A DNA stretch of 64,000 nt, taken from the IMG/VR virus record IMGVR_UViG_2772190778_000001. One strand, 5' to 3'. This stretch comes from a virus. Taxonomy: Duplodnaviria; Caudoviricetes. This document shows, piece by piece, positions 1,514 through 44,471 of this stretch. Within the stretch, counting starts at the first letter, position 1; each line of letters begins with the position of its first letter. A model generated the notes under the pieces. The model saw only the letters and a list, made by a program, of their open reading frames with translations, searched no databases and had not been told where the DNA came from. Position numbers and translations under genes: made by a program.

Positions 1514-1532
1514 GGATCAGCGCTCCTAAGGA

Positions 1533-3179: not shown

Positions 3180-3197
3180 ATTAAATGGGTATTTAAT
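3180..3197. promoter_or_regulatory. AT-rich palindrome ATTAAAT-GGGT-ATTTAAT upstream of the head operon
   Basis: Perfect inverted repeat in a roughly 300-bp intergenic region strongly conserved in P2. Confidence 0.4.
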
Positions 3198-3273
3198 GAG
3201 GCGCTGAGAGGCCATTGCGTCTGGTGGGGTCGGTTGCAGGTGCACCTGCGGGGTCAAATAACCCCAAATTGCC

Positions 3274-6370: not shown

Positions 6371-8012
6371 CCGGGAACCCTCCAAAATCCAGAACTCCGC
6401 CACCTCGGGCAAAGCCCATGCGCCGCCCGCCCAAAGGGCTGATGAAGTCCTCGGCCGTCAGAGCGGTGCGCCGCCCGGTCGATTGAAACTCCATGGGCAC
6501 CACGTCCTGATTGCTCGCATGCCAGGCGAGCGCGCCTGCGATGGCGCTGTCGCCATGCCGGTCGAGACCGTCCGAGCCTTTGAAGCGGAAGTTCTCGGGC
6601 ACGCGAATGATGCCGTTTGTGTATTGCAGCGCCTGATGGTCGCGCAGCACGTCCTCATGGGCGGGCAGAACGATGGTGCGATCCGAGAAGGCTTCGATAT
6701 AGGGCGGCATCTCCAGCTCGTACCATGCCCTCGTGAATGAGACCTCGACGATCCGCGCGCCGTAGCGTTGGGCCGCGACCTCGGCGAGATAGGCCCCGTT
6801 GCCGGTGCGGTCCATCGCGCCCTTTTGGAAATTGGGCAGGCGGTCGAGCAGCCAGAAGAGCACGTCGCGCTGCTGGTCAAAGGGGATATTGCGCAGCTCG
6901 ACAATGAGCTTGGTGCGCCGGGTGAGATCGACGCCCTGCTCGAGAATGATGATGTCGGTGGCATCGCCCGAGCGCGCAAAGTCCTCGCCCATGAAATGCG
7001 GGCGCGTTCGGTCGAGGGTTTTAAGCACCGGTTCAAGGTGGGTTTTACACCAGGCTTCAGCGGCGGCCTTGCGGACGGGTTCGTCGGCATTCTTGAAGCT
7101 GTCGGGCTGCGTCCAGCGATGGAACGGGATGCCCTGCGCCATGCAGGCCTCGATTTGGACGCGGGTCAGGGCCGCGCCTTCCATCTCGGCGGGTTCCGCA
7201 TCAAGCTCTTGGCGCATCGCGGCCTCGCGCGCGCCGTAAGCCCGGCGCACAGTGGCCTCCCACGCGGCCTCGGCCTCTGGCGTCCAGGTCTTGCCCTGCA
7301 TCATGCAGACGCGTTTATAAAGCCCGTTGGCGACCGCGTCGCTGAATGTGTAGCGATGCACCGCAAAGCCGTTCTTGCCCGCGCGCGCCTCGCGGATCAG
7401 CTCGTTGAAGGCATTGAGATAACCGTTATGGGTCGAGATGATCCGGACCTTGCCGCCCCAGATCAGCATTGCGTTCACGGCGTCGATCACCTCGCGCACG
7501 TCCTTGTGGAACGCGGCCTCGTCGATCACCACGGTGCCCTGAAGGCCCCGGATATTGGCGGGGTTGGAGCTGAGCGCCTCGACGCGGAACCCGGAGGCAA
7601 AGCGCACGCGGTAGGCCGAGATGAACTTGGTGGTGCCGTCGGGCTGTTGATCCTCGAAGAGAAACTCCTCGATAGGGTGCGCCGCCCCCGCGATCACCCG
7701 CGCGAAATGCGCCACATAGCCAATGGCCTCGCGGCCCTTATCCTTGGTGTCGCCGATGTAAAAGCAGTTCTGCCCGCCCGCACCGCGCGCGGCGGCGGCA
7801 ATGAGGGCGCAGCCCAGCATCTCGGCAAAGGTGATGCCGGTGCGGCGACCCTTCTCGCAGACCTTGAGATCGCTCTCGTCGGCCAGCCAAGAGCGTTGAT
7901 GTTCCATCAGGATGCCGTCTGCCAGCGGATCGAGGCTCTCGGGGATCTCCGAGCCGCGCGGCAATTCCTCGGGGAGCGCGTCCGGGTCGCGGGTGAGGAC
8001 GGGGGCGGTCAC
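6363..8012 (-). CDS. terL: Terminase large subunit (Mu gp28-like)
   Basis: EKGRRTGIT Walker A-like, VVIDEAAFH Walker B, ISTHNG, GEDFARSGD, HGDSAIA nuclease motifs; GTG start at 8012. Confidence 0.93.
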   Translation of the reverse strand: MTAPVLTRDPDALPEELPRGSEIPESLDPLADGILMEHQRSWLADESDLKVCEKGRRTGITFAEMLGCALIAAAARGAGGQNCFYIGDTKDKGREAIGYVAHFARVIAGAAHPIEEFLFEDQQPDGTTKFISAYRVRFASGFRVEALSSNPANIRGLQGTVVIDEAAFHKDVREVIDAVNAMLIWGGKVRIISTHNGYLNAFNELIREARAGKNGFAVHRYTFSDAVANGLYKRVCMMQGKTWTPEAEAAWEATVRRAYGAREAAMRQELDAEPAEMEGAALTRVQIEACMAQGIPFHRWTQPDSFKNADEPVRKAAAEAWCKTHLEPVLKTLDRTRPHFMGEDFARSGDATDIIILEQGVDLTRRTKLIVELRNIPFDQQRDVLFWLLDRLPNFQKGAMDRTGNGAYLAEVAAQRYGARIVEVSFTRAWYELEMPPYIEAFSDRTIVLPAHEDVLRDHQALQYTNGIIRVPENFRFKGSDGLDRHGDSAIAGALAWHASNQDVVPMEFQSTGRRTALTAEDFISPLGGRRMGFARGGGVLDFGGFPDG

Positions 8013-8203
8013 GGCTGGCCCTGCTCGATTTGCCAACCTTTACCGGCGAGCGATTTGAACAGCAGCACTGCGATCTGAAGATCGACAGTGAGCCGGAGGC
8101 CCGGCGACGAACTTTTTTTCTGAACCGCGTCACGCATTGCAGCCGCTTCGGTTGCAACCCAGCTCCCGGTTTTGCCGTCCGGGCTTTTCCATCGAAAGGC
8201 CAT
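8009..8203 (-). CDS. Hypothetical protein (64 aa), P1-specific insert
   Basis: Overlapping stop/start junctions on both sides. Confidence 0.6.
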   Translation of the reverse strand: MAFRWKSPDGKTGSWVATEAAAMRDAVQKKSSSPGLRLTVDLQIAVLLFKSLAGKGWQIEQGQP

Positions 8204-8493
8204 TAGCGCCGCTCCCGTTCTTTCCTGAGCAGGCGCCAATTGTTCAGGGCCACGCCGCCGGTGATCGCGGCGAGCAGCATGATCCAGTGCTCTTGTCCCA
8301 GCCACGTGAGCAGAATGCCAGCGGCCAGCGCCACGCCGAGTTTGACGGCCCACCAGTTGCCGGTCAGCCCCATGAGGCGGGCCATGAGCGGGTTGGCCTC
8401 GACCAGCCCGCCGCGCAGGGCCGCGCGCGTGGTCGCCACGTCGGCGAATTGCGCCAGCAGATAAACAGCCCAGATGAAAACCAGATCAGACAT
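8203..8493 (-). CDS. DUF5658-like small membrane protein
   Basis: DVATT..AL.GG.VEANPLM motif and three hydrophobic segments. Confidence 0.7.
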   Translation of the reverse strand: MSDLVFIWAVYLLAQFADVATTRAALRGGLVEANPLMARLMGLTGNWWAVKLGVALAAGILLTWLGQEHWIMLLAAITGGVALNNWRLLRKERERR

Positions 8494-8789
8494 CAGGCAA
8501 CCTCCCAGTAGCCATCGCGCAGCCAGCCATGCCAGCCGCAACGCAGTTGATTGACCGACGGTGTGAGCGTCGGCTCGGACAAGGACCCGTCCCATTCCCA
8601 GCTCGGGCTGGACGCGGGCTTGCCGCGCAGGCCGATGATGATCCGGCTCGGACCTTCGCAGCCGCAGGGGCAGTAAAACCAAAAGGACGCGGCGTCGGGG
8701 CCACCTTGGGTCAGGTCGATGTGGAAACTGCCCGGCAGCTTTTGCCGCCGGAACTCGGCCGGGTTGGGGAATTCGATGGCGCGGATCAT
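8493..8789 (-). CDS. DUF6527-family protein
   Basis: CPCGC...W.W....PTLTPSVN...CGWHGWLRDG.W motif. Confidence 0.75.
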   Translation of the reverse strand: MIRAIEFPNPAEFRRQKLPGSFHIDLTQGGPDAASFWFYCPCGCEGPSRIIIGLRGKPASSPSWEWDGSLSEPTLTPSVNQLRCGWHGWLRDGYWEVA

Positions 8790-9025
8790 GGGCGCGCCTC
8801 GGCAATCCAGACCAGATAGGGCTGATCCCGCCACCATGCGACGGTGCAGTGAAGGCCCAGATGCGTGATGCGCTCCCTGCGCCCGAACAGGAATATCCGC
8901 ACACGGCGGGACAAGGGCGCGCGACGCCAGTTGTGGTCACCAACCATCACCTTCCCTCCGGTCGAGAGGTCCTTGGACGGTATTCCCGCGAGGTCATCCA
9001 TTGCTGTCGGTATCAATTCATCCAC
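8786..9025 (-). CDS. Hypothetical protein (79 aa), P1-specific insert
   Basis: GTG start overlapping TerS end; ATGA overlap with the next gene. Confidence 0.55.
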   Translation of the reverse strand: MDELIPTAMDDLAGIPSKDLSTGGKVMVGDHNWRRAPLSRRVRIFLFGRRERITHLGLHCTVAWWRDQPYLVWIAEARP

Positions 9026-9590
9026 CGCGCACCCCCAGAAACTCGCGCTTGAGCTTGTCGATGATGCCGCTGCTTAGGCCCAGCTCATCGCGGGCGCTGT
9101 CCAGTGCCTCGACGGCATTGGCGCGCTCTTCGGCGGCGATGCGGGCGCGTTCCTTGACCATCAGCTGCTCGCGGATGCCCGCGCTCGACATGATGTCCTT
9201 CATCATCTTTCCGAGGAAATGCAGCTCGCGCGGGTCGATGTCCTCGCCCTCCTTGGTCATCTGCGATTTCAGGACCTTGAAGGCCACGCTTGTCATCATC
9301 TGGAAAAGAACGCGGTGCCGGTCGGCCTCCTCCGAGAGGTCATTGTCGGCCAGCCATTGCTGCGCCCAGGCACCGGCCTCGTCCTGGAGTTTGACGAATT
9401 GCTCATACTCCTGCCCATAGGCATGCAGGGCGCTCTTGCCGATGCGCAGCTCGAGCCCGTCTTCCGCGAGGCGGAAGTTCAATTCCTCGGCCAGCTCCTC
9501 GTAGCCGTGAAAACCCTTGGCTTTCCACCAGTCATGCAGCCACTGGCGCAACTCGGGCGGCAAGAGCTCAACCTTACGGGGCGGGGGCAT
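9018..9590 (-). CDS. DUF3486 protein (Mu gp27-like, putative small terminase)
   Basis: MPPPRKVELLP.ELR.WL, IGKSALHAYG motifs; upstream of TerL. Confidence 0.85.
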   Translation of the reverse strand: MPPPRKVELLPPELRQWLHDWWKAKGFHGYEELAEELNFRLAEDGLELRIGKSALHAYGQEYEQFVKLQDEAGAWAQQWLADNDLSEEADRHRVLFQMMTSVAFKVLKSQMTKEGEDIDPRELHFLGKMMKDIMSSAGIREQLMVKERARIAAEERANAVEALDSARDELGLSSGIIDKLKREFLGVRGG

Positions 9591-9591
9591 G

Positions 9592-9894
9592 TCAGAGCCT
9601 CCGCGCGCTTGGACGCTGGATATCCGGATGAACGGCCTCGCCGCGCGCGACCTCGATGCCGCGCCGGGTGGCCTCGGCAATGACAAAGTCGCCATGGTCG
9701 GCGACGGTGACCATGCCCACTTCCTGCAGCCATGCCAGTTCGGTGGTCACCTGGTCGAAGGTGGAGCCCACGCCCACGCCATTGAGCACGTCGCGCAGGA
9801 TCGAGGCATTGGCCGTATAGCCCGAAACCTGCTCGAGATGGCGCAGGATCGCGAGGCGGCGGTGTTTGCGCAAGGTTGCCTGATAATCGCTCAC
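9592..9894 (-). CDS. Conserved winged-helix-like protein (Mu gp26 position)
   Basis: RRLAILRHL...ELAWLQEVG...T.RG.EVARG; same protein sequence as the P2 copy apart from minor changes. Confidence 0.8.
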   Translation of the reverse strand: MSDYQATLRKHRRLAILRHLEQVSGYTANASILRDVLNGVGVGSTFDQVTTELAWLQEVGMVTVADHGDFVIAEATRRGIEVARGEAVHPDIQRPSARRL

Positions 9895-10235
9895 TTCTTG
9901 CCTCCATCGAGCAGGTGTTGTTCGTGGCGGGATACGATGGCCTCCAGCCGCGCGGTGATCATGGCGTTGCCCTCCATGACGGCGGCCATCTTCTCCATCG
10001 ATCCGGTTTGTCGGACCAGCTCGAGCTGGAGCGCGTGCATGTCATCCTTGCCCGGCATGTTCTGCACCGCCTGTTCGAGCCGCGAGATGCGCGCCTCGTG
10101 TCGGTCCATGCGCTCGTGACCCGCCTCGAGCTTTTTATCGAGGTCTTTGCGGCGGGTGGCCACGAAGGTGTAGAAGGCGACCAGCATCGGGAAGATGACG
10201 CCGAGCCCTTTCCAGAAGAGGTCCCAATCCATCAT
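9891..10235 (-). CDS. DUF2730-like protein (Mu gp25 position)
   Basis: N-terminal TM plus coiled coil, RISRLEQAV..MP.KDD.H.L. Confidence 0.75.
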   Translation of the reverse strand: MMDWDLFWKGLGVIFPMLVAFYTFVATRRKDLDKKLEAGHERMDRHEARISRLEQAVQNMPGKDDMHALQLELVRQTGSMEKMAAVMEGNAMITARLEAIVSRHEQHLLDGGKK

Positions 10236-10804
10236 GCCGTGCGCTTCCAGTCGTCGAGCGCTGGATTGTCTGTCACGTCCACGGCGGCCAAGGTGATCTC
10301 GGCATCCGGCCCTGTATCGGCCGCCCCCGGGCTGTCGGCGCGCAGCGCCCGCAATTGGGCGACGCTGTGCGCCACTTGTGGGGCCTGTGCGATGATCCGC
10401 GCGGCCTCTTTTTGCATCGCGGTTCCCCGGAACTTATGCAGCTCGCGCGCGCCGAAGTAGAAGGCAACAATGGCCCCCATCAGCGCCCAGAGCGGTTCGG
10501 GCACGAGGGCGAGGCCGGTCATCCGCTCCGCAAACCAGATCGGGTCGGACATGGCCGACCAGAAGAGGAAAATGCAGCCAAAGGCCATGGCCGGGCGCGG
10601 CAAGCGGTTGAGACCGTCCACGAACTGGCCCCAAAGGCCCTGCGCGCCGGTGAACTCAGCCGCCATCTGGCTCAGCGCCGCCTGCTGAAACGCGGCCTCG
10701 CGCATATCCGCCTTTTCGGCATTGGGCCGAAAGACCTCTGCCGTCTCGGCAATGACATTGCGCCCGCCGCCAAAGAGCGCGCCCAGAAATCGGATCAGCC
10801 CCAT
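10232..10804 (-). CDS. 3-TM holin family protein
   Basis: DGLNRLPRP...W.LMGAIVAFYFGAR motif; follows endolysin. Confidence 0.8.
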   Translation of the reverse strand: MGLIRFLGALFGGGRNVIAETAEVFRPNAEKADMREAAFQQAALSQMAAEFTGAQGLWGQFVDGLNRLPRPAMAFGCIFLFWSAMSDPIWFAERMTGLALVPEPLWALMGAIVAFYFGARELHKFRGTAMQKEAARIIAQAPQVAHSVAQLRALRADSPGAADTGPDAEITLAAVDVTDNPALDDWKRTA

Positions 10805-11406
10805 GATGCCACCCTCTCTTTGAAATCTGCGTCCGTCATGCGGTAGCGCGCTGACATGAATTCCTCGGCGCGCCTGATCCAGCCGCCTTTGCCGCCTGAG
10901 CGGGCGCGTGCGAACTTGCGGCTTGCAGGCCGCGCATCGGCGAGGCGGAAATAGTAGTTGCGCCGGGCAATCGCGTAGGCGTCGGCGATATGGGCGGGGG
11001 CCGCGTCATGGGCGGCCTCAACCGCGCGCAAGGTGGCCGGGCCAATCACGCCGTCGACAGTCGCCGGGAAACCCATTTCGGTGACGAGGCGCTGCAGGAT
11101 TTTCACGGCATTGGAGCCTGCGTTGACCTGCATGTCAAAGACGCTCGCCTGCAGCGCCTCGGGCAGTTCCGCGATGCGGGGCCGCACGAAATAGTGCTCG
11201 ATGAAGATCTCGACGGCGCGGGCGCGGGTCATGAGGCGCACGTCGGCCACGTCCACGTCGCCATCCCGGTCGAGATCAAGGCCCAAGCTGCGCATGGTGT
11301 GGATCGTGATGCCAAAATTGGTGGCCCCGCCGGGATCAGCGGGGTCATTCACAAAGCCGCCTTCGCGGGCGACAATCTCTTCGGCAATGGTTCGGACTGT
11401 TTGCAT
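10795..11406 (-). CDS. Endolysin, glycoside hydrolase family 108 with PG-binding region
   Basis: IVAREGGFVNDPADPGGATNFGIT, FDMQVNAG, DGVIGP.T. Confidence 0.9.
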   Translation of the reverse strand: MQTVRTIAEEIVAREGGFVNDPADPGGATNFGITIHTMRSLGLDLDRDGDVDVADVRLMTRARAVEIFIEHYFVRPRIAELPEALQASVFDMQVNAGSNAVKILQRLVTEMGFPATVDGVIGPATLRAVEAAHDAAPAHIADAYAIARRNYYFRLADARPASRKFARARSGGKGGWIRRAEEFMSARYRMTDADFKERVASWG

Positions 11407-11412
11407 GGGTGC

Positions 11413-11439
11413 CCCCCTTTCCCGTCAGGATAAAGGGGG
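11413..11439 (-). promoter_or_regulatory. Hairpin sequestering the endolysin ribosome-binding site
   Basis: mRNA CCCCCTTT-11 nt-AAAGGGGG just before ATG; conserved at 51374-51400. Confidence 0.55.
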
Positions 11440-11448
11440 CGGCATGGC

Positions 11449-11838
11449 TTATTCAGATGAAGCCTTTCGCATGACCTGGAGGAGGGGTGGTTCTTCCTCC
11501 TCTGCCAGCTCTGCCTTGACCTGCAAAACGCGGCGGGCGGTCACGCCGAAACGGTTGGCCAGTTCATTGACCGGCGTATCCGGGGCCTCGCGCAGGGCTT
11601 GTTTGAGGCCCTCCCGGGCCTGAGCGCGCCCCGAGGGCACGTCCAGATATTCGCCAGCGTAGCGGGCGGAAATCCATCTGGCAATATCCCGGCCCGCCAG
11701 CGTCACGAGGAGGCTGTCGGCAAGGCGAGTGCCGGGCACATAAAGCCGCATGCCGCCTGCGCGAGACAGGAAACGCTCGACCGGGGCCTCGCCCAGATCG
11801 GCGCGTATCTCGTCGATCCAAGACGGCTCACGCTCCAT
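11449..11838 (-). CDS. Mor/C-family transcription activator
   Basis: GGMRLYVP and C-terminal HTH ELANRFGVTARRVLQV; immediately upstream of lysis genes. Confidence 0.8.
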   Translation of the reverse strand: MEREPSWIDEIRADLGEAPVERFLSRAGGMRLYVPGTRLADSLLVTLAGRDIARWISARYAGEYLDVPSGRAQAREGLKQALREAPDTPVNELANRFGVTARRVLQVKAELAEEEEPPLLQVMRKASSE

Positions 11839-12079
11839 GGGGAGGCTTCCTGCGTCGCCGCCCCGGAGGCGGCGTGTGCTGCCGGGTCACGGTCACAACG
11901 CAACCGCCCTCGATCCTGTAGACGAACCCGCCGCTGATCACGCCGCAGGCTCCGGCCTCGAGACCTTGATCCACCACGCGCCCGATCTCGCGGCGCACCG
12001 CGTCGATATCCACGCCCTTGACCCGCTCGAGATAGCGGATCACGGCATGGTCAGAGGCGGGGTGGCGGGGCTTTTTCAC
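11828..12079 (-). CDS. Hypothetical phage protein (83 aa)
   Basis: SDHAVIRYLERVKG.D motif; GTGA overlap; deleted in P2. Confidence 0.7.
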   Translation of the reverse strand: MKKPRHPASDHAVIRYLERVKGVDIDAVRREIGRVVDQGLEAGACGVISGGFVYRIEGGCVVTVTRQHTPPPGRRRRKPPHGA

Positions 12080-12528
12080 CGGCGGTGATCCTCCCAGTCG
12101 AAGTCGATGTTCTGCCGATGGCCCCACGTTTTGAGGGCCTGAATGACAGCGTCGATCTGTTCCCACTCGCGCAGCATGTCGACATCGGCAGGGACCGATC
12201 CCCAGACAGCGCCGAACCGCGCGCGGATGAACTTGTTGAGCCCGGCGCGAGAAGGATCGCGCAGCGCGCCCGACTGGCCGAGCTTGCGCCAAAGCACATG
12301 GATCATGCGCAGATCGGCGCGCGGTGCGGACTTGTGGCGCGGGTTGTGGGGCTTGTCCTCGAACCCGGCTTGCTTCAGCCGGTTGACGATCAGCCGCAAC
12401 TCGCCGTCGTTCATGTCGCGCAAAGACGCCTTGCCGGTGACGCTGACCTGCAAGTCGCGGCGCGCGTCCTCGTCGAGGCCCAACTGGCGGCAGGCCGCGA
12501 AGATGAGCTTGTGAAGTGCGTGGTTCAT
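12076..12528 (-). CDS. Mu gp16/GemA (DUF1018)-like protein
   Basis: RQLGLDED..RD....TGK.SL, I..LW..L, I.ALK.W motifs. Confidence 0.85.
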   Translation of the reverse strand: MNHALHKLIFAACRQLGLDEDARRDLQVSVTGKASLRDMNDGELRLIVNRLKQAGFEDKPHNPRHKSAPRADLRMIHVLWRKLGQSGALRDPSRAGLNKFIRARFGAVWGSVPADVDMLREWEQIDAVIQALKTWGHRQNIDFDWEDHRR

Positions 12529-12941
12529 GCGGTGGCCTCCGCACTCTCGTCCGGGTACCAACAGATCAGCGCCCCGTTGAAATACTCGACGTCACCATGG
12601 GCGCGTGCCCAGAACCCCGACATGTCCGCAATGTCCGAGAACCCGTCCTGACGCGCAAACTTGTCCAGATCCGCGACCTGCGTCCAACGTCCGGATGACC
12701 AAGTGCCAATCTCGACCTCGACAATACTGCGCGCGCTCAGACGGATCGAGATTGGCAGCACCACCGTGCAGAACGGGTCAGGGATGATTTTCATGCAATG
12801 GCGCGTCCGCATGCCCGTGAACAGCTGGAGTTTCTCACCCGGGCGCGCATGCCGTTTGCGCGGCAGTCGGATGGTCTGGCGCTTGGTGCCCGCGAGGATC
12901 TGCGGTGCAAAGCGCTTCTGGAAGGAGTAGGCGACCATCAT
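12525..12941 (-). CDS. ASCH-like domain protein
   Basis: YSFQKRF...ILAGTKRQTIR...RPGE.LQLFTGMR...FARQDGF. Confidence 0.75.
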   Translation of the reverse strand: MMVAYSFQKRFAPQILAGTKRQTIRLPRKRHARPGEKLQLFTGMRTRHCMKIIPDPFCTVVLPISIRLSARSIVEVEIGTWSSGRWTQVADLDKFARQDGFSDIADMSGFWARAHGDVEYFNGALICWYPDESAEATA

Positions 12942-12966
12942 GGCAACCTTTCTTGCAGGGCGCGGT

Positions 12967-13227
12967 TCATGCCAGCGTCATCCCGAGCGCTTGCGCGTAC
13001 ATCTCAAGAACCGCCTGTTCCTCGGCGACGTCGTTGATGTCGCGCTTGCGCAGGGCGATGATCTTGCGCATCACGGCGGTGTCGTAGCCGCGCCCTTTGG
13101 CCTCGGCCATCAGCTCTTTTTGCTGCTCCGAAAGATCCTTCTTCTCCGCTTCAAGGTGCTCCCACCGCTCGATAAACTGGCGCAACTCTTCTGCCGTGAC
13201 GCGGTAATTCTGATCATTGGTCGTCAT
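12967..13227 (-). CDS. GapR-like (DUF2312) nucleoid-associated protein
   Basis: ELRQFIERWEHLEAEKKD...EAKGRGYD...RKIIALRK...EEQAVLEMY..ALGM. Confidence 0.88.
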   Translation of the reverse strand: MTTNDQNYRVTAEELRQFIERWEHLEAEKKDLSEQQKELMAEAKGRGYDTAVMRKIIALRKRDINDVAEEQAVLEMYAQALGMTLA

Positions 13228-13230
13228 GGG

Positions 13231-13440
13231 TCACTCCTCCTCTTCTGCGTCAACAAGCGACGTCACGCAGACGGGTTGATGGTCGATCTCGCATTCAATG
13301 GCGCGCTCGCACTCGGGGCAGGTATGACGGCCGGACCCGATATTGCCCAAATCGTGATAGCAGCCCGGGCAGGTCCAATAGTCATCCCTCCCCGCGTTGG
13401 CGCATGTGTCGGCAAAAGGCTCATAGCTCGGACGGCTCAT
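13231..13440 (-). CDS. Small zinc-finger protein
   Basis: CPGC and CPEC pairs; ATGA overlap with upstream gene. Confidence 0.65.
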   Translation of the reverse strand: MSRPSYEPFADTCANAGRDDYWTCPGCYHDLGNIGSGRHTCPECERAIECEIDHQPVCVTSLVDAEEEE

Positions 13441-13676
13441 AGCGCGCTCTCCAGATAGCGGGTGACCGCGCCGTGAAGCTGGGTGCGGTCCTCATCCTCG
13501 CCGGGCATGGCCTCGATCAGGAGCCGCATGGCGTCGGCCAAGATCGAGAGCGTGTCGCCCGTCACAATGTTACCATGGGGGAACGGTCCGCCCTCCCGCG
13601 CAGCCTCGATCAAATCGAAGGTGGCGCTGGCGGTATGTTCCGCTGCGGCGAGCAGCTTGTTGACGATCTCTTCCAT
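13437..13676 (-). CDS. Hypothetical protein (79 aa)
   Basis: AGAGAG RBS; coupled to next gene. Confidence 0.6.
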   Translation of the reverse strand: MEEIVNKLLAAAEHTASATFDLIEAAREGGPFPHGNIVTGDTLSILADAMRLLIEAMPGEDEDRTQLHGAVTRYLESAL

Positions 13677-13688
13677 CTCTCTGAACTC

Positions 13689-13868
13689 CTATTGAAGCGC
13701 TAAGACGACAAGGGCCGTGCCCAGCAGGCTGAAAAATGGTGCGGCAATGGAGGTCGCCGTCGCCTTATCTAACTCGCCCTTGTCAAGCTGCTGGCCGCAC
13801 AATGCGGCGACCATCAGCGCCAGCAGACGGAAGACGACCCCGGCCATAATGATTAGAACGGCGCTCAT
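13689..13868 (-). CDS. Small membrane protein
   Basis: GAGGGG RBS, two hydrophobic segments. Confidence 0.55.
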   Translation of the reverse strand: MSAVLIIMAGVVFRLLALMVAALCGQQLDKGELDKATATSIAAPFFSLLGTALVVLALQ

Positions 13869-13872
13869 CCCC

Positions 13873-14523
13873 TCACACCTTCGCAAGATCGAGAACCACC
13901 GTCTGCCACGGGGCCTCTGTGTTGGGGCGGTGCTTGACGCGCACATACGTAGCCTTGCCCACTACCCGCATGGCGTCGCGGATGGCGTCCATCGCCCGGT
14001 TCCACCGCGCGTCGGCGATGTCGAGCCGCAGGAGCATGAAGATTTCGGCGCGGTTGATCTGGCCTTCTTTGTCGGTGTTGAAGGCGCGCGTCACGATGGC
14101 CTGAATTTCCGGGCGACTGTCAGCGGACCATTCATTGAGGCATTCGTCGATGAGGCCCTTGGCGATCTGCAACTCGGGGCCGAAGTCCACCCGGTCCTGC
14201 ACTTGGACCTGCACCTGAAAGAGCCCGTCATAGGTGGTCAGCGTCTTGTTGCCCTTGGCCCCGCCGACGGTGGTCCCATACTCCTGCGCGAGGATTGCCT
14301 CGAAATCCGAAATGTCGTCGAAGGTGTGTTCCTTGAAGCGGCGGAGCTGGTCGCTGAGGGCCAGCGCATATCCGGCGATCTTGCGCACCTGTTCGTCTTG
14401 CAACTGGTCTTGCGGGCGCACGAGATCAAGCGGCACTTCGCGGCCCTTGGCGTCGACCATCTTGCGGCGGCCGTTCTCCTCTATGATGCCTGACGGCACC
14501 GGATGGGGGGTGAATGCAGACAT
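13873..14523 (-). CDS. DUF3164 family protein
   Basis: GG.KGN.TL...DG, F.PELQ.AK.LIDECL.EW, AF..DKEG.IN, W..AM.AI motifs. Confidence 0.88.
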   Translation of the reverse strand: MSAFTPHPVPSGIIEENGRRKMVDAKGREVPLDLVRPQDQLQDEQVRKIAGYALALSDQLRRFKEHTFDDISDFEAILAQEYGTTVGGAKGNKTLTTYDGLFQVQVQVQDRVDFGPELQIAKGLIDECLNEWSADSRPEIQAIVTRAFNTDKEGQINRAEIFMLLRLDIADARWNRAMDAIRDAMRVVGKATYVRVKHRPNTEAPWQTVVLDLAKV

Positions 14524-14524
14524 T

Positions 14525-14725
14525 TTACTCTCCTGTTGAAGGGGGTGTTGAAAGCAGGCTTGGACCCACACCATGGAGCGCGCAGACGGCGGCCATGGCG
14601 GCGATCTCGTCCATTGAGCAAAGCGTGCTGCCGCGCGGGCCAAGCAGGTCCACCTTAGCTACTCCCGAGGCTGCAAGGCGCAGCATCTCGTCGGGACTCC
14701 AGCGGCAGATTTCGGGGGCGTTCAT
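14525..14725 (-). CDS. Hypothetical early protein (66 aa)
   Basis: LRLAASGVAKVDLLGPRG; conserved in P2. Confidence 0.7.
   Translation of the reverse strand: MNAPEICRWSPDEMLRLAASGVAKVDLLGPRGSTLCSMDEIAAMAAVCALHGVGPSLLSTPPSTGE
14536..14552. repeat. Dispersed motif TTGAAGGGGGTGTT(G/T)(A/C)A
   Basis: Copies at 14536, 20648, 38666-38694, 52929, 58379; reverse-type copies at 25214 and 26718. Confidence 0.7.
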
Positions 14726-15072
14726 TGTCCTGTCTCCTTGTCGTCGAGAATGGCGTCGATCAGATTGTCGCGGATCACGACGTCGAGGATGCGGACGGCG
14801 AGCGCCTTGGTTTCCATCCCGCGCGCGATGGCATGCGGCTCGAGCGCGGCGCGGGTCTCGGCGTTGAGCCTTGTCAGCTGTGCACCTTGAGGCCCGCAGG
14901 GTTTGCCCGGCCGAACCGGTGGAAAAGTGACCCCGTGGCGGCGCAGGTAGTGCAGCACGGAGTGGACGCGCTGCGTCGTGACCCCGAGGCGGCGCGCGAT
15001 CTCTGAGGCCGGTACCGCCTGCGCCGCAAGCTCCGTCACCGGTACATCAAGGCTGTCGTCATGCCGCGTCAT
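14722..15072 (-). CDS. HTH-containing early protein
   Basis: SEIARRLGVTTQRVHSVL helix-turn-helix; conserved in P2. Confidence 0.75.
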   Translation of the reverse strand: MTRHDDSLDVPVTELAAQAVPASEIARRLGVTTQRVHSVLHYLRRHGVTFPPVRPGKPCGPQGAQLTRLNAETRAALEPHAIARGMETKALAVRILDVVIRDNLIDAILDDKETGQ

Positions 15073-15433
15073 CGTCGGCCCCCTTGTGGATGGGGCAGCG
15101 ATTGCAGGCGCGGTACATGGAGACGCTGAGCGAGTTCACATTCTCGAACTGCGCCGCCTTGCCGCGCCAGCGCCGGCAGACCTGTTTGCCGATCTCGCCC
15201 AAGGCGGGGCAGTCGACCACTTCGCGCATGAAATGCCCGCGCACGAGGTCCTCGACGATGCCGGTATCGGCGGGATAGCGGTTGCGCAGAATGTTCGACA
15301 CGAGGGTCGCGCTGCGCTCCATCTTGACCGCGACCTTGTTCTGGCTGGTCTCGTCGCAGGCCCGCGCCAAGGCGGCCACCCAATCGGGCAGGTCCTCGCC
15401 CCAGAAGGTGCGGGCGGTGTCGAGCGCACTCAT
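15059..15433 (-). CDS. Conserved Mu-like early protein (HTH plus Cys cluster)
   Basis: WG...PDWV..LA..C..TSQ..VA, V.CPALG, C..W, C..CP. Confidence 0.8.
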   Translation of the reverse strand: MSALDTARTFWGEDLPDWVAALARACDETSQNKVAVKMERSATLVSNILRNRYPADTGIVEDLVRGHFMREVVDCPALGEIGKQVCRRWRGKAAQFENVNSLSVSMYRACNRCPIHKGADDDAA

Positions 15434-15960
15434 GCCGCACCGCCTTTCGCCGGGCTGAAATCGCCGGTGTTGGGATCGAGAATGCCCGCCAGGCGCACCG
15501 GCTTGGGCGCGCGCGGGCCGGTATCCTCGACAATCTGGTAAAGCGCTTCACGGCGGCCGGGAATGGCAGTCTGCCTCACTTTCAAGTGGTTTGAGGCCAA
15601 GAGTTGGCGGCAATATGCGCGGGCCTTTTCGACAGTCACTTCGACGCCTCCAGCATTGGCATGCGCGGCAACGTCTGTCGGGTTGAAGTGGCGCAGAAGG
15701 CGCATGGCGCGCCACATATTGCCCTCGGGTGTTGCCTCGCCAGAGACAGGCTGGGGGCCGGGCAGGGGTAGGTGGCAGGGGCTATACCAGCGCTTGCCGT
15801 TGCGCCCGATCCGCGACACGCGGATTTGTCCTGCATCCGCCCAGTGTCGGATATAGCGAACGGCAGTCTCGCGGCTGCAGCCAAGTCGAGAGACTTCGGC
15901 CCAGTCGAACTCCTCGAGGTTTTTAACCTCGGCCCACATCTGCGCAAAAAGATCGCTCAT
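15430..15960 (-). CDS. Putative DNA-binding (winged-helix) early protein
   Basis: MWRAMR.L..F...D, Y...L...LV..TGP.AP, DPN motifs; follows MuB. Confidence 0.75.
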   Translation of the reverse strand: MSDLFAQMWAEVKNLEEFDWAEVSRLGCSRETAVRYIRHWADAGQIRVSRIGRNGKRWYSPCHLPLPGPQPVSGEATPEGNMWRAMRLLRHFNPTDVAAHANAGGVEVTVEKARAYCRQLLASNHLKVRQTAIPGRREALYQIVEDTGPRAPKPVRLAGILDPNTGDFSPAKGGAA

Positions 15961-16754
15961 GCCCGCGCCGCCTTTCCTGCTGGCCCAAGTGGCACAACAG
16001 TCTCAGGACTGCGCGCCGCCGCCGGGCGAAAATCATCAACCCGCCGGACGGCTGGGGGCTGCCCTGTGTCGAAGGCTCGATTAGCCCAAAGCTGGAGGTC
16101 GACAGAGCGCTGCCCTCGGCCCTTGGCCAACTCCTTGGCACGGGCGAGGTTGGTGGCTACCCGCCGCATCGAGCCGCCCGACGCTTCCACAATGGCCTCG
16201 AGCAGATCAGAGGCCACGTCGACACCTGAAGCGTAGATCGGGACGAGTTTCTGTGCGTCCGTAAGGTTGCAGGCGAGGGCAGGTTCCCATGCGAGCTGCA
16301 AACTGTGGATGTTCTCCCAGCGGGTCAGGTCTTGTGGCAATTTTTCCTCGCCGACGAGGATCAGCGTACCTTGCGAGCCTTTGTAGATATCGCGCACCAG
16401 CTCAATCATTCGCTTTCGCAGGAGGTTCTGCGCATCGTCGATAATGAGCGGACGGTCGGTTCGTGCCAAATGCGCGGAGATCGCATCGGCCATGTGCGTG
16501 ACCCGTCGCATTGGTGGCAGGCCAATCTCATGCATTATTTTTTGCACAAGGTCTGTCGGCGTCCAGTAGTCTTTCACTTCAACGAAATATGCCTGATACT
16601 CGTTGGCCGCGACCGTCACGGCGGTGGTCTTGCCCCAGCCGGAGGGTCCATAGAACGTGGCCATGCCGGGTAGGCCAAAGGCGCGGGACTGGACGCGCTC
16701 GACGAGGCCGATCAGCGCTGCGACGTTTCGCAGGGGCGCAATGGAAGGTGTCAT
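15957..16754 (-). CDS. MuB-like AAA+ transposition ATPase
   Basis: Walker A GPSGWGKT, Walker B LIIDDA, ILVGEE. Confidence 0.93.
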   Translation of the reverse strand: MTPSIAPLRNVAALIGLVERVQSRAFGLPGMATFYGPSGWGKTTAVTVAANEYQAYFVEVKDYWTPTDLVQKIMHEIGLPPMRRVTHMADAISAHLARTDRPLIIDDAQNLLRKRMIELVRDIYKGSQGTLILVGEEKLPQDLTRWENIHSLQLAWEPALACNLTDAQKLVPIYASGVDVASDLLEAIVEASGGSMRRVATNLARAKELAKGRGQRSVDLQLWANRAFDTGQPPAVRRVDDFRPAAARSPETVVPLGPAGKAARA

Positions 16755-16772
16755 GCTGCTCTCCTTTTCTTG

Positions 16773-18896
16773 TTACTCTTGGGCACCGAAGCGGCGCTCC
16801 ATGCGCAGCTGGGTGCGGTAGTCGGAACTCTGTTGGTAGTCGGCCAGCCAATCGGCCTGCGCCTGCGTCAGCGTCTCGCCCTCCGCCTGCGCGGTCTCGA
16901 GGGCGCGGGCACGCAGAAAAAGGGCCTTGGGATCGTCTTCATCGACCTCAACGGGGCGGGCGCGATGCTCGGCGAGGCGCGTCACGCGGGCCTCAAGCGC
17001 TGCTTCGCGCTCTTTCTCCTCGGCGCTCTGCGCGCGCCGCCGTTTGGGGGCGGCCTTGTGCGGCGTCACAAGCTGATGAACTTGCGCCTCGGGCAGGGGG
17101 TCGTCTGCCGCCAGCCCCGAGGCTGCGCGCACCCGGGCGGCCACCTCGGCCGCCGTCAACTCGCGCGCGGCCTTGGCCTCATCGCGCTGCGCACGCATCC
17201 ATGTCTTGCGCTTTCGGTTGTGATCGCGTGCGGCCTCAACGTCGCGGAACTTGGCGTCCTTGAGACATTTGGCATGGCCGAGGTACCGGCCCGCCAGATC
17301 ATAAACCTCGAGACCGGCTGTCAAATCATCCGCGTCGAACCGCGCAACCACCTTCTCGCCTGCGATCCGGTACATCCACTCTGACCAGTATTCCGTGTCG
17401 TAGAGCTTCAGAGCGCCGTTGCTGGTCTTGGCCCGCACACCCTCGGCGCGCAGGAGCCAGAGACGCAGTTGTTCGTCCGTCGCGCGCTTGATCGTGGCGC
17501 GCGCATAGCCCTCGTTGAACACCTCATTAAACGACCGTCCCATGGCCACTTCGCTGCGCCGCCCGGGGCGGGCGTTGTGATGCGCGAGTTCGTCCTCTAA
17601 GACGAGGCGGAACTCCTCGAGCGGGATGGCGCGGGTGCCGTAATCCTCGGGCTTGGCGTCCGGTTTGTTGCCGGTATAGGCCCCGTCAAAGGCGGGATGC
17701 TTGGCCACCCGGTCGCAGAGGTCGCGAAACGCGCGCTCGATGGGCTTGGATTGCCCCGAATAGGGTGTGGCCCAATGTATTTCGACGCCCAAGAGCGGAA
17801 GGAGGCCGGGAATATCCTCGTCGGTGATCTTGAAGCGGAACCGGGTCGGCGTGCCGCCTGTCATCGCCTTGGCCGCGAACTCCCGGCCGTTGTCGATCAG
17901 AACCGACTGTGGGATGCCATAGGTCCGGATCAGGTCGCCGGTGACCAGCTGCACCGTGTGGCTGTTCGCCGTCGGCGACAGGCGCCAAGCCAAGAGCTTG
18001 CCGGAATAGACGTCCGACCAGACCATCATCTGCGGTCGCACGGGCTTGTCGTAGCCCGGCCACGACACAAAGACGTCGAACTTGTGATAGTCGCCCTGGA
18101 CGCATTCGAGCGGGGCCATGAACGCCTTGCTGCGAACCTGCGCAGGATAAAGGCGGCGCAGCGCTTCCTCGCCCTTGCGCATGAAAATCTCCGTGGGTAC
18201 CGAGACGCTGGCCTTGAGCCAACGGCGCACCTGATGGAGAGGCGGCACGGCGCTGTTGCGCCGCTCTGAGGTCCAGACGCGCACGGCACGGTCATAGCAA
18301 CTGGTGAGAGAGGGTTGCGACAGGCGCAGCCAGTCGCTGCGCACAAGTGACAGAAACGCAGGGTCTATGTCATCCCGCCGGGCGGGGGAGCGCCGCAGCG
18401 CGCGCCCGTCGATCAGGTAAGCCAGCCGGTCGGCCCGGGCGACGCCCTCGACCTGCCCGAGGTAATTCCAGAGGGATTTGTCAGACCGCTCCAGCTTGCG
18501 CGCGACCTCGCGCACGGCCGCCGAGCGGGTCAGCCCGGCCCCTTCCAGCAATTCGACCTCGGCAATAGCCCCAAGCCGCGCCTCGGCCTCGGCGCGCGCC
18601 TTGTCGCCCGCCGCCGCATAGCGCTCCCATGCCTCGCCAGTCCCGGGCTTATCCGCCGGAGCCGCGACCAGACCGGCGCTGAGCCGCATCCGGGCGCGCA
18701 GAGGCAAGATGCTCCAGTGATACTCGACGCCGCCGCCGACCCCCTTACGCCGCCGGACCTTTCCGGGGTGCCGTGCCCAGCCCTCGCGCACCGCCAGATC
18801 GTTGACCTTGCGCTTTGTGCCGGGCAGGTCGGGCAATCCGGCCTCGGCCAGCTCGGCGGCAGACCACCACTCTTGCGCAGGGGCGGGTCCAGTCAT
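16773..18896 (-). CDS. MuA-like DDE transposase
   Basis: N-terminal Mu HTH; catalytic GDYHKFD / IDNGREF / SKPIERAF. Confidence 0.95.
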   Translation of the reverse strand: MTGPAPAQEWWSAAELAEAGLPDLPGTKRKVNDLAVREGWARHPGKVRRRKGVGGGVEYHWSILPLRARMRLSAGLVAAPADKPGTGEAWERYAAAGDKARAEAEARLGAIAEVELLEGAGLTRSAAVREVARKLERSDKSLWNYLGQVEGVARADRLAYLIDGRALRRSPARRDDIDPAFLSLVRSDWLRLSQPSLTSCYDRAVRVWTSERRNSAVPPLHQVRRWLKASVSVPTEIFMRKGEEALRRLYPAQVRSKAFMAPLECVQGDYHKFDVFVSWPGYDKPVRPQMMVWSDVYSGKLLAWRLSPTANSHTVQLVTGDLIRTYGIPQSVLIDNGREFAAKAMTGGTPTRFRFKITDEDIPGLLPLLGVEIHWATPYSGQSKPIERAFRDLCDRVAKHPAFDGAYTGNKPDAKPEDYGTRAIPLEEFRLVLEDELAHHNARPGRRSEVAMGRSFNEVFNEGYARATIKRATDEQLRLWLLRAEGVRAKTSNGALKLYDTEYWSEWMYRIAGEKVVARFDADDLTAGLEVYDLAGRYLGHAKCLKDAKFRDVEAARDHNRKRKTWMRAQRDEAKAARELTAAEVAARVRAASGLAADDPLPEAQVHQLVTPHKAAPKRRRAQSAEEKEREAALEARVTRLAEHRARPVEVDEDDPKALFLRARALETAQAEGETLTQAQADWLADYQQSSDYRTQLRMERRFGAQE

Positions 18897-19747
18897 GCCG
18901 CGTCCCCTTGGTCAATCTCGCCGAACAGCGCCGCAACCTCTGCGCCGCGCTCCTCGAGAAACGCCATGCGCTCCCGCTTGCCCGCACGGTCCCATGCGTC
19001 CATGAGGCGCGCGAGGGTGGCGTCTTTTGGGCTGGCCGGGGCCGGTGCCTCACCGCGCGCGGCGCGGTACGCCTCGCGTGCGGCTTTGACCGTTTTTGCC
19101 CGCCCGGCTGATAGTTCTTCTACAACGAAACCTCGTTCCTCGGCCTCGCCCATTTTGCCGATATCAATCAGGTCCATCACCTCGACCCGCTTTGGAGCGG
19201 CACGAAGGCGCTCTATCTCTTTGCGCCGTAGGAGACTGCCTGCGCGCACGAAGTTGCGAACGTGGCGCTCGCTGAGGCCGAGATTTTCCGCAACGCTTTC
19301 GGCAAAGGATGCGACGGAAATCATTTCCGCCGTATCCCATCGCTTGGATGCAAGGCCCGCCCCGGTCGCCGCTTTAGCCTCCGGGTGCAGCCGTTCATAG
19401 GCCGACTTGCGTTCAGCCAAAAACAACGCCAGATCGACCGGGATAAGGGGCTGACTGGCAAGGTTGCCGTCGATCTCCATCATTCTGGCTTCGGCGTCGT
19501 TGCAGCGAAAGAGATCAACGGGGACCACCGTCTCGCCAAGTTCTTGCATCGCGGTCAAACGGTGCAGTCCCTCGACTAGATAATCGCCGTCCTTCTTACG
19601 CCGCACCCATATTTTGCCACGAAAACCGCTCTGGCGGATCGACGCCTTCAGGCTCTCGACATGCTTGCGCGACACATTCCGCAACCGGTCTTCGACCTTG
19701 ATCGCTTCAATCGGCAGTTCGGTGATTGTGGAAAGGTGCTCAATCAT
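18893..19747 (-). CDS. ParB N-terminal-like domain protein
   Basis: L..SI.Q.G....I.VR....Y.L..G.HRL.A, EID.NL motifs; coupled to MuA. Confidence 0.82.
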   Translation of the reverse strand: MIEHLSTITELPIEAIKVEDRLRNVSRKHVESLKASIRQSGFRGKIWVRRKKDGDYLVEGLHRLTAMQELGETVVPVDLFRCNDAEARMMEIDGNLASQPLIPVDLALFLAERKSAYERLHPEAKAATGAGLASKRWDTAEMISVASFAESVAENLGLSERHVRNFVRAGSLLRRKEIERLRAAPKRVEVMDLIDIGKMGEAEERGFVVEELSAGRAKTVKAAREAYRAARGEAPAPASPKDATLARLMDAWDRAGKRERMAFLEERGAEVAALFGEIDQGDAA

Positions 19748-19968
19748 TCTGGGGCCTTCGTCATTGTGTAGCGGCAGATCAGCCGGTCGGCTTTGCGCTC
19801 GCGGGTGCAGAGGATCTCCGCCCCGTTGGCGCGCAATTCGGAAATGCAGCTGTTCACCGCCACCACATGCGCCCGCCGCACGATCTCGCGCGTGGTGTGC
19901 GGGCGGCCATCCTTGAGGACGGCAAGCACCCGTTGCAGGCGGGGCGAGGTGAGCGGCGCGTGATGCAT
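19744..19968 (-). CDS. Small HTH protein
   Basis: RLQRVLAVLKDGRPHTTREI...VNSCISELRANG; absent from P2. Confidence 0.7.
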   Translation of the reverse strand: MHHAPLTSPRLQRVLAVLKDGRPHTTREIVRRAHVVAVNSCISELRANGAEILCTRERKADRLICRYTMTKAPE

Positions 19969-21854: not shown

Positions 21855-22511
21855 ATGGACTTTGGATCTCTAGTGCTTGCACGGCTCGAGGAGCTGGGAG
21901 AAAATGTGAATAGCTTTGAGGCCAAGTGCGGCTGGCCTCAAGGCTACCTCCGGGCTGTTGTCAGAAACGACGAGAAGCGAACAAGGCCCAATCTGGAGCG
22001 GGCTAAGGAGATCGCCGAGGCGCTCGACCTTGACTTCTACATTGGGCCAAAGCGGGAGACCGGAACGGTCTACACCACCCAGATCGACCACGAAGATTTC
22101 GCGGCGATCCCGCGCGTCGATGCGCGGCTTGCGGCAGGGGCCGGGGCTTTAAACGGAGAAGTCAGCCTTCAGGGCGCACTTGCGTTTCGCCAGGACTGGC
22201 TGCGCGAGCGGGGCATCTCCCCGGCACAAGCTTGCCTTCTTACCGTTGCCGGTGACAGCATGTCGCCCACTCTGCACGACGGCGACCTCGTCATGATCGA
22301 CGAGCGCCGCACCACAGTTCGAAATCGCCACGTCTACGCCTTCGTCGACGTCGACGGCAGCGCCCGCGTCAAGCGCGTCGAATTGGTACCCGACCAGCTG
22401 ATCATCCTGACATCTGACAATGCCGCCCACCCGACCGAAACACGAACCGGCCCGGACATGAACCGCCTGCGCATCCTCGGCGAGATTGTCTGGTCGGCGC
22501 ATGCCTGGTAG
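21855..22511 (+). CDS. CI-like repressor with S24 self-cleaving peptidase domain
   Basis: N-terminal HTH, LAAGAG cleavage site, VAGDSM (Ser), RVKRV (Lys). Confidence 0.92.
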   Translation: MDFGSLVLARLEELGENVNSFEAKCGWPQGYLRAVVRNDEKRTRPNLERAKEIAEALDLDFYIGPKRETGTVYTTQIDHEDFAAIPRVDARLAAGAGALNGEVSLQGALAFRQDWLRERGISPAQACLLTVAGDSMSPTLHDGDLVMIDERRTTVRNRHVYAFVDVDGSARVKRVELVPDQLIILTSDNAAHPTETRTGPDMNRLRILGEIVWSAHAW

Positions 22512-23334: not shown

Positions 23335-23472
23335 TTCACTGCAAACTTCGCGTACCGCCGAGTTGTCCGCCCGATTATCCCGCCAAAGCCCTTATTTCAT
23401 TGGCCTATCCGGCAAAGTCCGGCGTCAGTTCGGTTCTTCCGGCATCACTGTAAACTAATGTGTAACCCTACA
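23335..23472 (-). other. Left end of prophage 1 (L2-like and L1-like transposase sites, terminal TG/CA)
   Basis: L1 23444-23465, L2 23335-23356 (87-bp gap), terminus TGTAGGG read inward from 23472. Confidence 0.8.
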
Positions 23473-23475
23473 GCG

Positions 23476-23519
23476 TGACAGCGAAGTTTGCAGTGAATTA
23501 CAGTGAAGTTTACAGCAAC
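23476..23519 (+). other. Right end of prophage 2 (tandem R1/R2-like 22-bp sites)
   Basis: TGACAGCGAAGTTTGCAGTGAA and TTACAGTGAAGTTTACAGCAAC; 17 bp identical to the reverse complement of 23335-23351. Confidence 0.8.
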
Positions 23520-23737
23520 GCGATTTTGGAAATGACCGAGTCGAGCGTCACTTTGGACATTAGCTCTAGCCTGGCCCTTTGATTTCGTCACGGTTTGTTC
23601 GGGATTCAGAGGTCACGGTCAAAAGACAATTGTCGCCATTGATCTTGCGCTAAAGTGAAGCCCCCGCCCAAATCCCACTATTGCGTCAACGAACTGCTCT
23701 TCTTAGGCTACCGGTGATAGCAGCAGGTGATACCCGA

Positions 23738-41175: not shown

Positions 41176-41532
41176 TCAGGAACCCGCGCCAGCGGCGGCC
41201 TGCATCTCGGCCCAGACCGCATCCCGCACACCGGCGGTGATCTGGTCGCCGAGGCCCGGGGCTGCGTCCTGCAACGCCTTGACGCGTGGCTTGCCGCTCT
41301 TGTCGAAGGCGTCGCCCGGCAGGGCTTTGACGGCCTCGCTCAAGGCCACGCGCAGCGCGTCGTCGAGGACAGGCGGCGGCGCGGTGTCAGCCCCTCCGTC
41401 AGTCTCTTCGATTGCGCCCAGGGCCAGAAGGCGCGCGATCTGCGCCGCGCTGCCGATCTCTTGCGCGGGGTGGGTCGATCCCGCCTCAAGCCGCGAGGCC
41501 GCGATCACGGTGCGTTTGATGAGATAGCTCAT
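41176..41532 (-). CDS. Head-associated hypothetical protein (Mu gp35 position)
   Basis: Homolog of 201-557. Confidence 0.8.
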   Translation of the reverse strand: MSYLIKRTVIAASRLEAGSTHPAQEIGSAAQIARLLALGAIEETDGGADTAPPPVLDDALRVALSEAVKALPGDAFDKSGKPRVKALQDAAPGLGDQITAGVRDAVWAEMQAAAGAGS

Positions 41533-42488: not shown

Positions 42489-42507
42489 GGATCAGCGCTC
42501 CTAAAGA

Positions 42508-42873
42508 TCAGGTGACGGAGTGACGGGCAATCGCCACGTCGATGATGTCGCCAGCCACGCCCGCCTGCAGCGCGTAGCCGACGGCGATGTTTCCGGCCCC
42601 GGCAGCGGCGGCGACGCCAAGGCCCGAGGCGTCCGACGCGATGGGCGCACCGGCGGCAACCGTGCCCGCAAGCTCGAGCTCGGCCGAGCCGGACATGATC
42701 ACGTCCTGAAGGTCGCCCGGCTTTGCGTCGAGCTGGTCCGAGATGCCAATCGCGAGATTGGTCGCGGCGGCGGCCACGAGGATGCCGCCCGCCGCACCGA
42801 ACTTGACGATCCGGCGACCGGGCACCGCCGCTTCGGCGGTGTAGGATTTGATGAACGCTCCGGGGTTAGGCAT
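42508..42873 (-). CDS. DUF2190-like capsid cement protein
   Basis: Homolog of 1533-1898. Confidence 0.75.
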   Translation of the reverse strand: MPNPGAFIKSYTAEAAVPGRRIVKFGAAGGILVAAAATNLAIGISDQLDAKPGDLQDVIMSGSAELELAGTVAAGAPIASDASGLGVAAAAGAGNIAVGYALQAGVAGDIIDVAIARHSVT

Positions 42874-44468: not shown

Positions 44469-44471
44469 GTC

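Follow-up and report, generated by a model that had tools for sequence, protein, structure and literature searches.

The left end of one Mu-like prophage (P1) is joined directly to the right end of a second (P2) in the 64,000-nucleotide stretch of DNA analyzed here (the window; G000:C1:3625148-3689147), which raises the question of how two transposable phages came to abut. Three models had been offered in an earlier note: (a) P1 transposed to a position 4 bp inside the P2 right end and duplicated GCGTG, (b) the two ends form an abutted CA-GCG-TG active junction, or (c) a covalent circle of one phage recombined into a resident relative. The last two would have required a non-canonical route. 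A reading of the outer ends had been set beforehand as the deciding check.

Results

Two related Mu-like prophages stand in tandem

The outer ends of the prophages were located by self-comparison of the extended region together with a whole-genome search for the end motif. The resulting extents and the main genes are as follows (window coordinates).

-17185 to 23472, minus strand: prophage P1, Mu-like, 40,658 bp in total; its right terminus lies outside the window, at G000:C1:3607962
15957-16754: MuB-like AAA+ ATPase beside the P1 transposase (Pfam and position)
16773-18896: 707-aa MuA-type transposase of P1 (Pfam)
21855-22511: S24 repressor of P1 (Pfam)
23473 to 65447, minus strand: resident prophage P2, 41,975 bp plus 4 clipped nt; its left terminus CCCTACA at 65447 lies outside the window
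55169-57292: 707-aa MuA-type transposase of P2 (Pfam)
58870-59529: S24 repressor of P2 (Pfam)
65456 and 71254: further ends, namely a third right end and a diverged left end, respectively

P1 and P2 are oriented alike, each with its genes on the minus strand, and Pfam identified Mu-type elements on both sides of the junction, each with a 707-aa transposase carrying DDE_2, HTH_Tnp_Mu_1/2 and Mu-transpos_C domains, an AAA+ ATPase beside it and an S24 repressor. The P1 transposase matches PF02914, PF09039, PF02316 and PF09299. The 265-aa protein encoded directly downstream of it matches AAA_22 and AAA_30 only, and its position fits MuB. Judged by sequence, P1 and P2 are members of the Mu-like transposable phage class (Saltovirus-type).

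The two prophages are collinear over 63% of their length at 68-92% identity. Their longest identical run is 140 bp, so that neither reciprocal switches nor a recent conversion are indicated. The aligned parts of the two diverge throughout by 8-30%, which makes assembly collapse or a mis-join of repeats unlikely. Four other assemblies contain a junction of this kind. The transposases are 91% identical; of the repressors, the S24 domain alone aligns (67%), and the N-termini are unalignable. The differing N-termini would permit superinfection, and the two comparisons together fit a picture in which P1 was a heteroimmune newcomer with a transposase able to read the ends of the resident.

P1 and P2 are mosaics (window 201-19757 against 41176-58153): identity reaches 82-92% in the modules for head, tail and transposase, and unrelated cassettes and the diverged repressor N-terminus break up the homology. 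The cargo close to the ends looks like defense genes: DUF4041 and T5orf172 domains are encoded by the right-end gene of P2 (23681-25114, plus strand), the region near the P2 left end (59787-62990, plus strand) encodes a calcineurin-like phosphoesterase of 1067 aa that also has an nSTAND NTPase domain, and the right-end gene of P1 (L001:2949-4223, minus strand) carries a RelA/SpoT domain.

The junction joins a complete left end to an incomplete right end

The junction of the P1 left end and the P2 right end was confirmed as described before and reads ...CACTGTAAACTAATGTGTAACCCTACA|GCGTGACAGCGAAGTTTGCAGTGAATTACAGTGAAGTTTACAGCAAC. It comprises the following features, of which the repeats were assigned by repeat and motif comparison.

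23335..23356, minus strand: L2, inner repeat of the transposase-binding type, P1 left end
23444..23465, minus strand: L1, terminal repeat of the transposase-binding type, P1 left end
23466..23472, plus strand: P1 left terminus CCCTACA (inward 5'-TGTAGGG), from sequence
23473..23477, plus strand: GCGTG, right-hand copy of the 5-bp target duplication of P1, corresponding to positions 5-9 of the P2 right end
23478..23499, plus strand: R1 repeat, P2 right end
23500..23521, plus strand: R2 repeat, P2 right end
-17190..-17186: GCGTG, left-hand copy, preceded at -17194..-17191 by the TGTA clipped from P2
23336-47 (minus), 23445-56 (minus), 23485-96 (plus) and 23507-18 (plus): sites of AGTTTRCAGYRA from a motif search

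Across the 64-kb window, AGTTTRCAGYRA is confined to four sites, one each in L2, L1, R1 and R2; 0.02 copies are expected, and none of 100 shuffled windows reached four copies. R1 and R2 form a direct repeat with 22-nt spacing, and the perfect 17-nt inverted repeat noted between L2 (23335-23351) and R1 (23481-23497) was borne out. The ends show TG...CA termini, L2 and L1 separated by about 87 bp, and R1 directly followed by R2; a role in transposase binding is predicted for these repeats. The asymmetry of the ends that had been pointed out is likewise genuine: L1 is separated from its terminus by 7 nt, and R1 from the junction by only 3 nt, because the P2 right end is truncated by 4 nt. Correspondingly, the P1 left terminus ...CCCTACA, which extends to 23472 and is also found at the P2 left end, in R. 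mucosus and in Roseovarius sp. 217, directly adjoins a P2 right end without its first 4 nt.

P1 transposed into the right tip of P2

A simple R. mucosus prophage, bounded on either side by CGGGG, served to calibrate both the termini and the 5-bp duplication. This phage group has TGTAGCGTGAC as its right terminus, as borne out by P1, by the remnant E3 described below, by 70 right ends elsewhere and by a simple prophage whose CGGGG duplication is clean. At the far end of P1, 40.7 kb upstream of the junction, the right terminus TGTAGCGTGACAGCG... is preceded by TGTA-GCGTG, which is composed of the 4 nt missing from P2 and a second GCGTG. P1 (TGTAGCG...CCCTACA) thus has GCGTG on both flanks, a 5-bp target-site duplication of the kind also seen as CGGGG in R. 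mucosus and in three further tandems (see below). Excising P1 together with one GCGTG regenerates TGTAGCGTGACAGCGAAGTTTGCAGTGAATTAC, which is identical to the right ends of E3 and Roseovarius mucosus. The probability that a 5-nt repeat and the restoration of 4 nt coincide by chance is about 4e-6. The predicted TGNN-GCGTG before the P1 right end was therefore found, and of the three models it is (a) that stands, while (b), (c) and with them a non-canonical route fall away.

The flanks show P1 to be the later arrival, inserted by canonical Mu transposition 4 bp inside the P2 right end. The two 3'-OH ends of P1 attacked bonds 5 bp apart, and the staggered cut spanned GCGTG, nucleotides 5-9 as counted from the P2 right terminus. 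In this way the first 9 nt of P2 (TGTAGCGTG) were stranded 40.7 kb away, beyond P1, GCGTG was doubled, and the P1 left terminus was placed against GCGTG-ACAGCG... The junction calls for no new recombination route; the chemistry is canonical and the choice of target is unusual.

The insertion left its mark on the resident. The P2 right terminus, formerly TGTA-GCGTG, now reads TACA-GCGTG and has lost its terminal TG/CA, whereas both P1 termini are intact. In Mu, loss of the terminal TG/CA blocks cleavage and strand transfer, and by analogy the clipped terminus should have disabled P2's own transposition.

A variant of this scenario is that P1 landed outside an intact P2 right end, in a 9-nt orphan tip, and that a later 9-bp slippage deletion between GCGTG copies produced the present junction. 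GCGTG-TGTA-GCGTG would supply the 5-nt direct repeat needed, and the predicted precursor, a left end followed by GCGTG and TGTAGCGTGACAGCG, exists at the same host locus in Roseovarius sp. 217 (L060/L078). However, the sp. 217 prophage has a P2-like left end and a right end unlike that of P1 and is therefore not the same insertion, and slippage takes one event more than direct insertion to arrive at the same flanks. We regard it as improbable, and it would still amount to transposition at the right tip of a resident. Model (b), in which the ends form a reactive left-right junction with a 3-bp spacer as in IS3, IS21 or IS30 circles or dimers, can point to the adjacency of the ends and to a CA...TG readable around GCG, but it needs complete termini, a 2-3-bp spacer and ends of one element or of identical copies, whereas the P2 right end lacks 4 nt, the ends belong to distinct phages with 68-92% identity, the TG after GCG is internal (right-end positions 8-9) and not a terminus, the right terminus is TGTAGCG in P1 and in 70 of 70 relatives (which were selected solely on TGTAGCGTGAC and the R1 core), and the missing TGTA with the second GCGTG sits at the other end of P1; its probability is negligible. 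Equally negligible is model (c), homologous recombination of a circle into a resident to yield two chimeras, for which the direct tandem orientation and the long stretches of homology speak, but which is contradicted by differing outermost flanks (GCGTG on the P1 side, GTGAC on the P2 side), by a 5-bp repeat around P1 alone and by the alignment of the two prophages, which shows neither near-identical blocks nor reciprocal switches in identity.

The host locus carries a stack of elements

In three congeneric species, a gap of 90-190 bp separates the acyl-CoA dehydrogenase gene (L001:1561-2703) from the gene at L002:8216-8782, so that about 89 kb must have been inserted at this locus. The inserted DNA consists of P1, P2, E3 and about 0.9 kb with a GAD-like/Tdi1 gene (GAD-like/Tdi1_C, L002:7312-8055), which lies between E3 and the conserved host flank. 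E3 is a 5.8-kb end-bearing remnant that follows P2 outside the window (65456-71254; L002:1456-7254). It is bounded by a complete right end, the first 55 nt of which are 98% identical to those of P2, and by a diverged left end (GGGCCTACA), and it encodes a YCII protein, an ECF sigma factor with DUF6596 and proteins of unknown function. No phage genes were found in E3, and its flanks (ACTGT and AGCAT) do not match. E3 may be a non-autonomous mini element that can be mobilized in trans. A similar pair of ends, about 3.5 kb apart, occurs in R. lutimaris. The GAD-like/Tdi1_C gene is followed by CCCCCCCTACA|ACGCA (L002:8126-8136), a candidate for a fourth, still older left tip; as it lacks an L1-type repeat and nothing in sp. 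217 corresponds to it, we do not count it as one.

The DNA to the left of P1 reads ...CCAG TGTTGCGTGAC TGT TGT TGTAGCGTGAC TGT TGTA-GCGTG | TGTAGCGTGACAGCGAAG... and thus contains six abutting prefixes of the right tip, with lengths of 11 (one mismatch), 3, 3, 11, 3 and 9 nt. The last, 9-nt prefix is the piece that P1 cut off P2. P2 is flanked by the 8-bp repeat GTGACTGT rather than by a clean 5-bp duplication, and none could be reconstructed for P2 or E3. The GTGACTGT flanks could have arisen through two successive hits followed by collapse.

The intergenic site (left flank L001:2704-2790, right flank from L002:8216 onward) carries a right end in at least six Roseovarius species and is empty in three others (G007, G008, G018). 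The right ends at this site are found in:

this genome, L035, L042, L045 (R. mucosus), L074 (R. azorensis) and L078 (sp. 217)

The stack of orphan tips differs in each of these genomes, and the shared locus fits a putative long-lived landing pad. In R. azorensis (L074; NZ_FOAG01000001.1, 219089-221196), this host locus has a pair of right ends in facing orientation with 2.1 kb between them. The left end of a 43-kb prophage abuts one of the pair, and a fragment resembling a left tip (TGTAGGTTTACAAACTT) lies within the orphan stack. The facing ends may be the product of an inverted insertion or of an inversion.

Insertion at resident right ends appears to recur in related phages

The junction sequence was compared by BLAST against 400 genomes of the family. 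A second left-right junction was found in another genus, in Citreimonas salinaria (...CCCCACA TTGT TGTAGCG), and is matched 38.7 kb away by ...TTGTT|TGTAGCG, so that the duplication TTGTT takes in the first base of the resident right end. Two more tandems have matching duplications: Roseovarius sp. 217 (GCGTG, 41.6 kb), which occupies the same host locus as P1 and P2, and the MAG ES23-11 (GCTGT, 39.8 kb). In all three, the duplication coincides with the resident right terminus or is no more than 1 nt away from it. We had expected a full downstream prophage in C. salinaria and sp. 217. This was ruled out, as the sequence that the upstream phage has in common with its downstream partner is limited to about 59 bp of right end and the resident is a right-end remnant; a remnant therefore suffices as a target. 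The left-right junctions in R. azorensis (L074/L022) and Sulfitobacter DFL-14 (L021/L014) showed no matching duplications and were not counted as verified.

For a census, one genome per species was scanned with the right-end pattern, which yielded 70 right ends, nearly all from Rhodobacteraceae. A left end adjoins seven of these, and in five cases the spacer is 4-5 nt long. Exact copies of the element's own tip directly abut the right end in 21 of 70 cases when copies of at least 6 nt are counted and in 17 of 70 with at least 8 nt, the lengths being 6, 8, 9, 11, 14, 17, 20, 23, 36 and 45 nt; at random positions in the same loci, 0.19% show copies of at least 4 nt. The left-end pattern is too degenerate for a scan of the collection, and flanks were instead sampled at about 10 left ends, where no orphan tips occurred. 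Mu in complete E. coli genomes served as a second control: its 12 right ends (11 distinct sites) showed neither a tip copy of at least 5 nt nor a left-right junction (Fisher p for the census against this small control, 0.03 for at least 6 nt and 0.06 for at least 8 nt).

At 3 of the 11 distinct E. coli Mu sites (L094-L105), TGA or TGAA stands directly outside the right terminus TGAAGCG; the preferred 5-bp target thus resembles the tip itself. Tip copies of 3-4 nt (TGT, TGTA) were therefore dropped as candidate scars, since E. coli Mu shows the same through its target-site preference, and copies were counted only from 6 nt upward. Taken at the level of sequence, target choice at resident right ends appears to be recurrent in this phage group.

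Orphan right tips as probable traces of former tandems

If tandem copies later collapse by homologous recombination, short orphan right tips would remain as scars. Of the seven orphans that exceed 12 nt, five match the current right end exactly. The orphans in L061 (45 nt) and L028 (38 nt) diverge from the current end and therefore point to a different phage having landed there. Long orphans identical to the current end fit self-insertion, for example between sister chromosomes, followed by loss of a copy, but also a duplication by nick repair. Moreover, some cases of an orphan plus one prophage may be true tandems in which identical copies were collapsed by short-read assembly.

For the orphan tips, as distinct from the junctions, nick repair is the strongest competitor: tandem duplications would arise at the transposase nick site through faulty repair or strand-displacement synthesis, with no insertion of a whole phage. 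That every orphan begins at nt 1 of the terminus agrees with this, as does the predominance of orphans matching the current end. On the other hand, the 9-nt orphan beside P1 was demonstrably made by insertion, the orphans in L061 and L028 are unlike the current end, and the extant tandems represent the predicted intermediate of collapse. We therefore consider nick repair an unlikely, if serious, explanation.

A more general objection is that the tandem position reflects chance or selection, with insertions at a prophage boundary being harmless and surviving without any targeting. It is true that insertion beside a prophage disrupts no host gene and that genomes show survivors only. However, harmless sites are plentiful in intergenic DNA and prophage cargo, and yet four verified events fall at -8 to +9 nt from a right terminus; the frequencies of abutting left ends and of tip copies in the census, and the absence of the latter from the sampled left ends and the E. 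coli Mu ends, also speak against it. Its probability is very low, marginally below that of slippage at the P1-P2 junction.

Discussion

Our findings make it very probable that P1 transposed into the right tip of a resident prophage, and from the recurrence we infer that such tips are preferred targets for incoming relatives. More tentatively, and with slightly less than even credence, we propose that Mu-like phages of the Rhodobacteraceae engage in right-end homing, in which the right terminus of a relative, or even a solo right-end remnant such as persists at a single host locus in several Roseovarius species, is the preferred landing pad and resident ends exert attraction instead of immunity. 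The hit of P1 on the P2 tip would then not have been due to chance. The incoming MuA-like transposase would bind R1 and R2 of the resident and distort the terminus or present it as target DNA, a recruitment mechanism that is purely conjectural. At junctions with a 5-nt spacer, the commonest class, the bottom-strand bond hit by the incoming right end is the very bond between phage and host at which the resident's own donor cleavage would occur, which suggests that the resident end may occupy a transposase active site at the moment of attack. Together with the confinement to right ends, whose R1-R2 repeats are contiguous, this leads to the hypothesis that transposase on the resident end presents the terminus as target.

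No target immunity is apparent from these positions, with P1 lying 4 nt inside the P2 right end and the three other verified insertions 0-1 nt from the resident right terminus. Heterologous ends may fail to confer immunity. It counts against attraction that these phages carry a putative MuB-like ATPase, as MuB confers cis-immunity in Mu.

If right-end homing is true, landing there would spare host genes and could clip and disable the resident, as in P2. Recombination would then replace the resident and leave the stack of orphan tips as a readable record of successive arrivals, offering annotators a simple signature of prophage turnover. It would also explain how randomly integrating phages come to be stacked at one locus and would point to competition between phages that is fought by clipping, the newcomer trimming the terminus of the resident. 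Mu is the textbook transposon that avoids its own ends, and relatives that seek ends would provide a natural contrast for studying target choice and avoidance by MuA/MuB-type systems. A literature search with partial journal coverage returned no report of Mu-like phages inserting into the end of a resident.

Among known systems, Mu and the D3112/Ab30 and RcapMu-type phages are closest. With them, the phages described here share the MuA-type DDE transposase, the Mu N-terminal DNA-binding domains, the TG...CA termini, the L1 - about 87 bp - L2 spacing, the contiguous R1-R2 repeats and the 5-bp duplication; the adjacent AAA+ gene is MuB-like by its position. Their repressor is of the LexA/S24 type, whereas that of Mu is c-type. 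The main difference concerns target choice. In Mu, a zone of about 1.5 kb next to its own ends is free of insertions (cis-immunity), and self-insertion hardly occurs; even when MuB is deleted, none lands closer than about 98 bp to the ends (PMC7350765). For the Pseudomonas phage Ab30, the domains at the genome ends rank with the coldest regions for self-insertion (PMC5977238). Unlike in Mu and Ab30, the insertions here lie at -8 to +9 nt from the resident right terminus.

Tandem prophages of the integrase type arise by site-specific recombination at regenerated att sites. Like such tandem or polylysogenic att-site prophages, the phages here are related temperate phages arranged head to tail at one locus, where recombination yields hybrids; unlike them, they use no integrase or att site, and what serves as the 'site' is the previous occupant's transposon end. 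A further parallel is IS30, a 1.2-kb insertion sequence of another DDE family that moves by copy-out-paste-in and uses a 2-bp IR-IR junction as reactive donor. Its transposase directs insertion beside or into the terminal repeat of a resident copy, which leads to directly abutted ends (PMC9333248). End-directed insertion and abutted ends are thus shared with IR targeting and (IS30)2 dimers; unlike IS30, the element here is a 40-kb phage that makes a normal 5-bp duplication, and the abutted ends come from two different elements.
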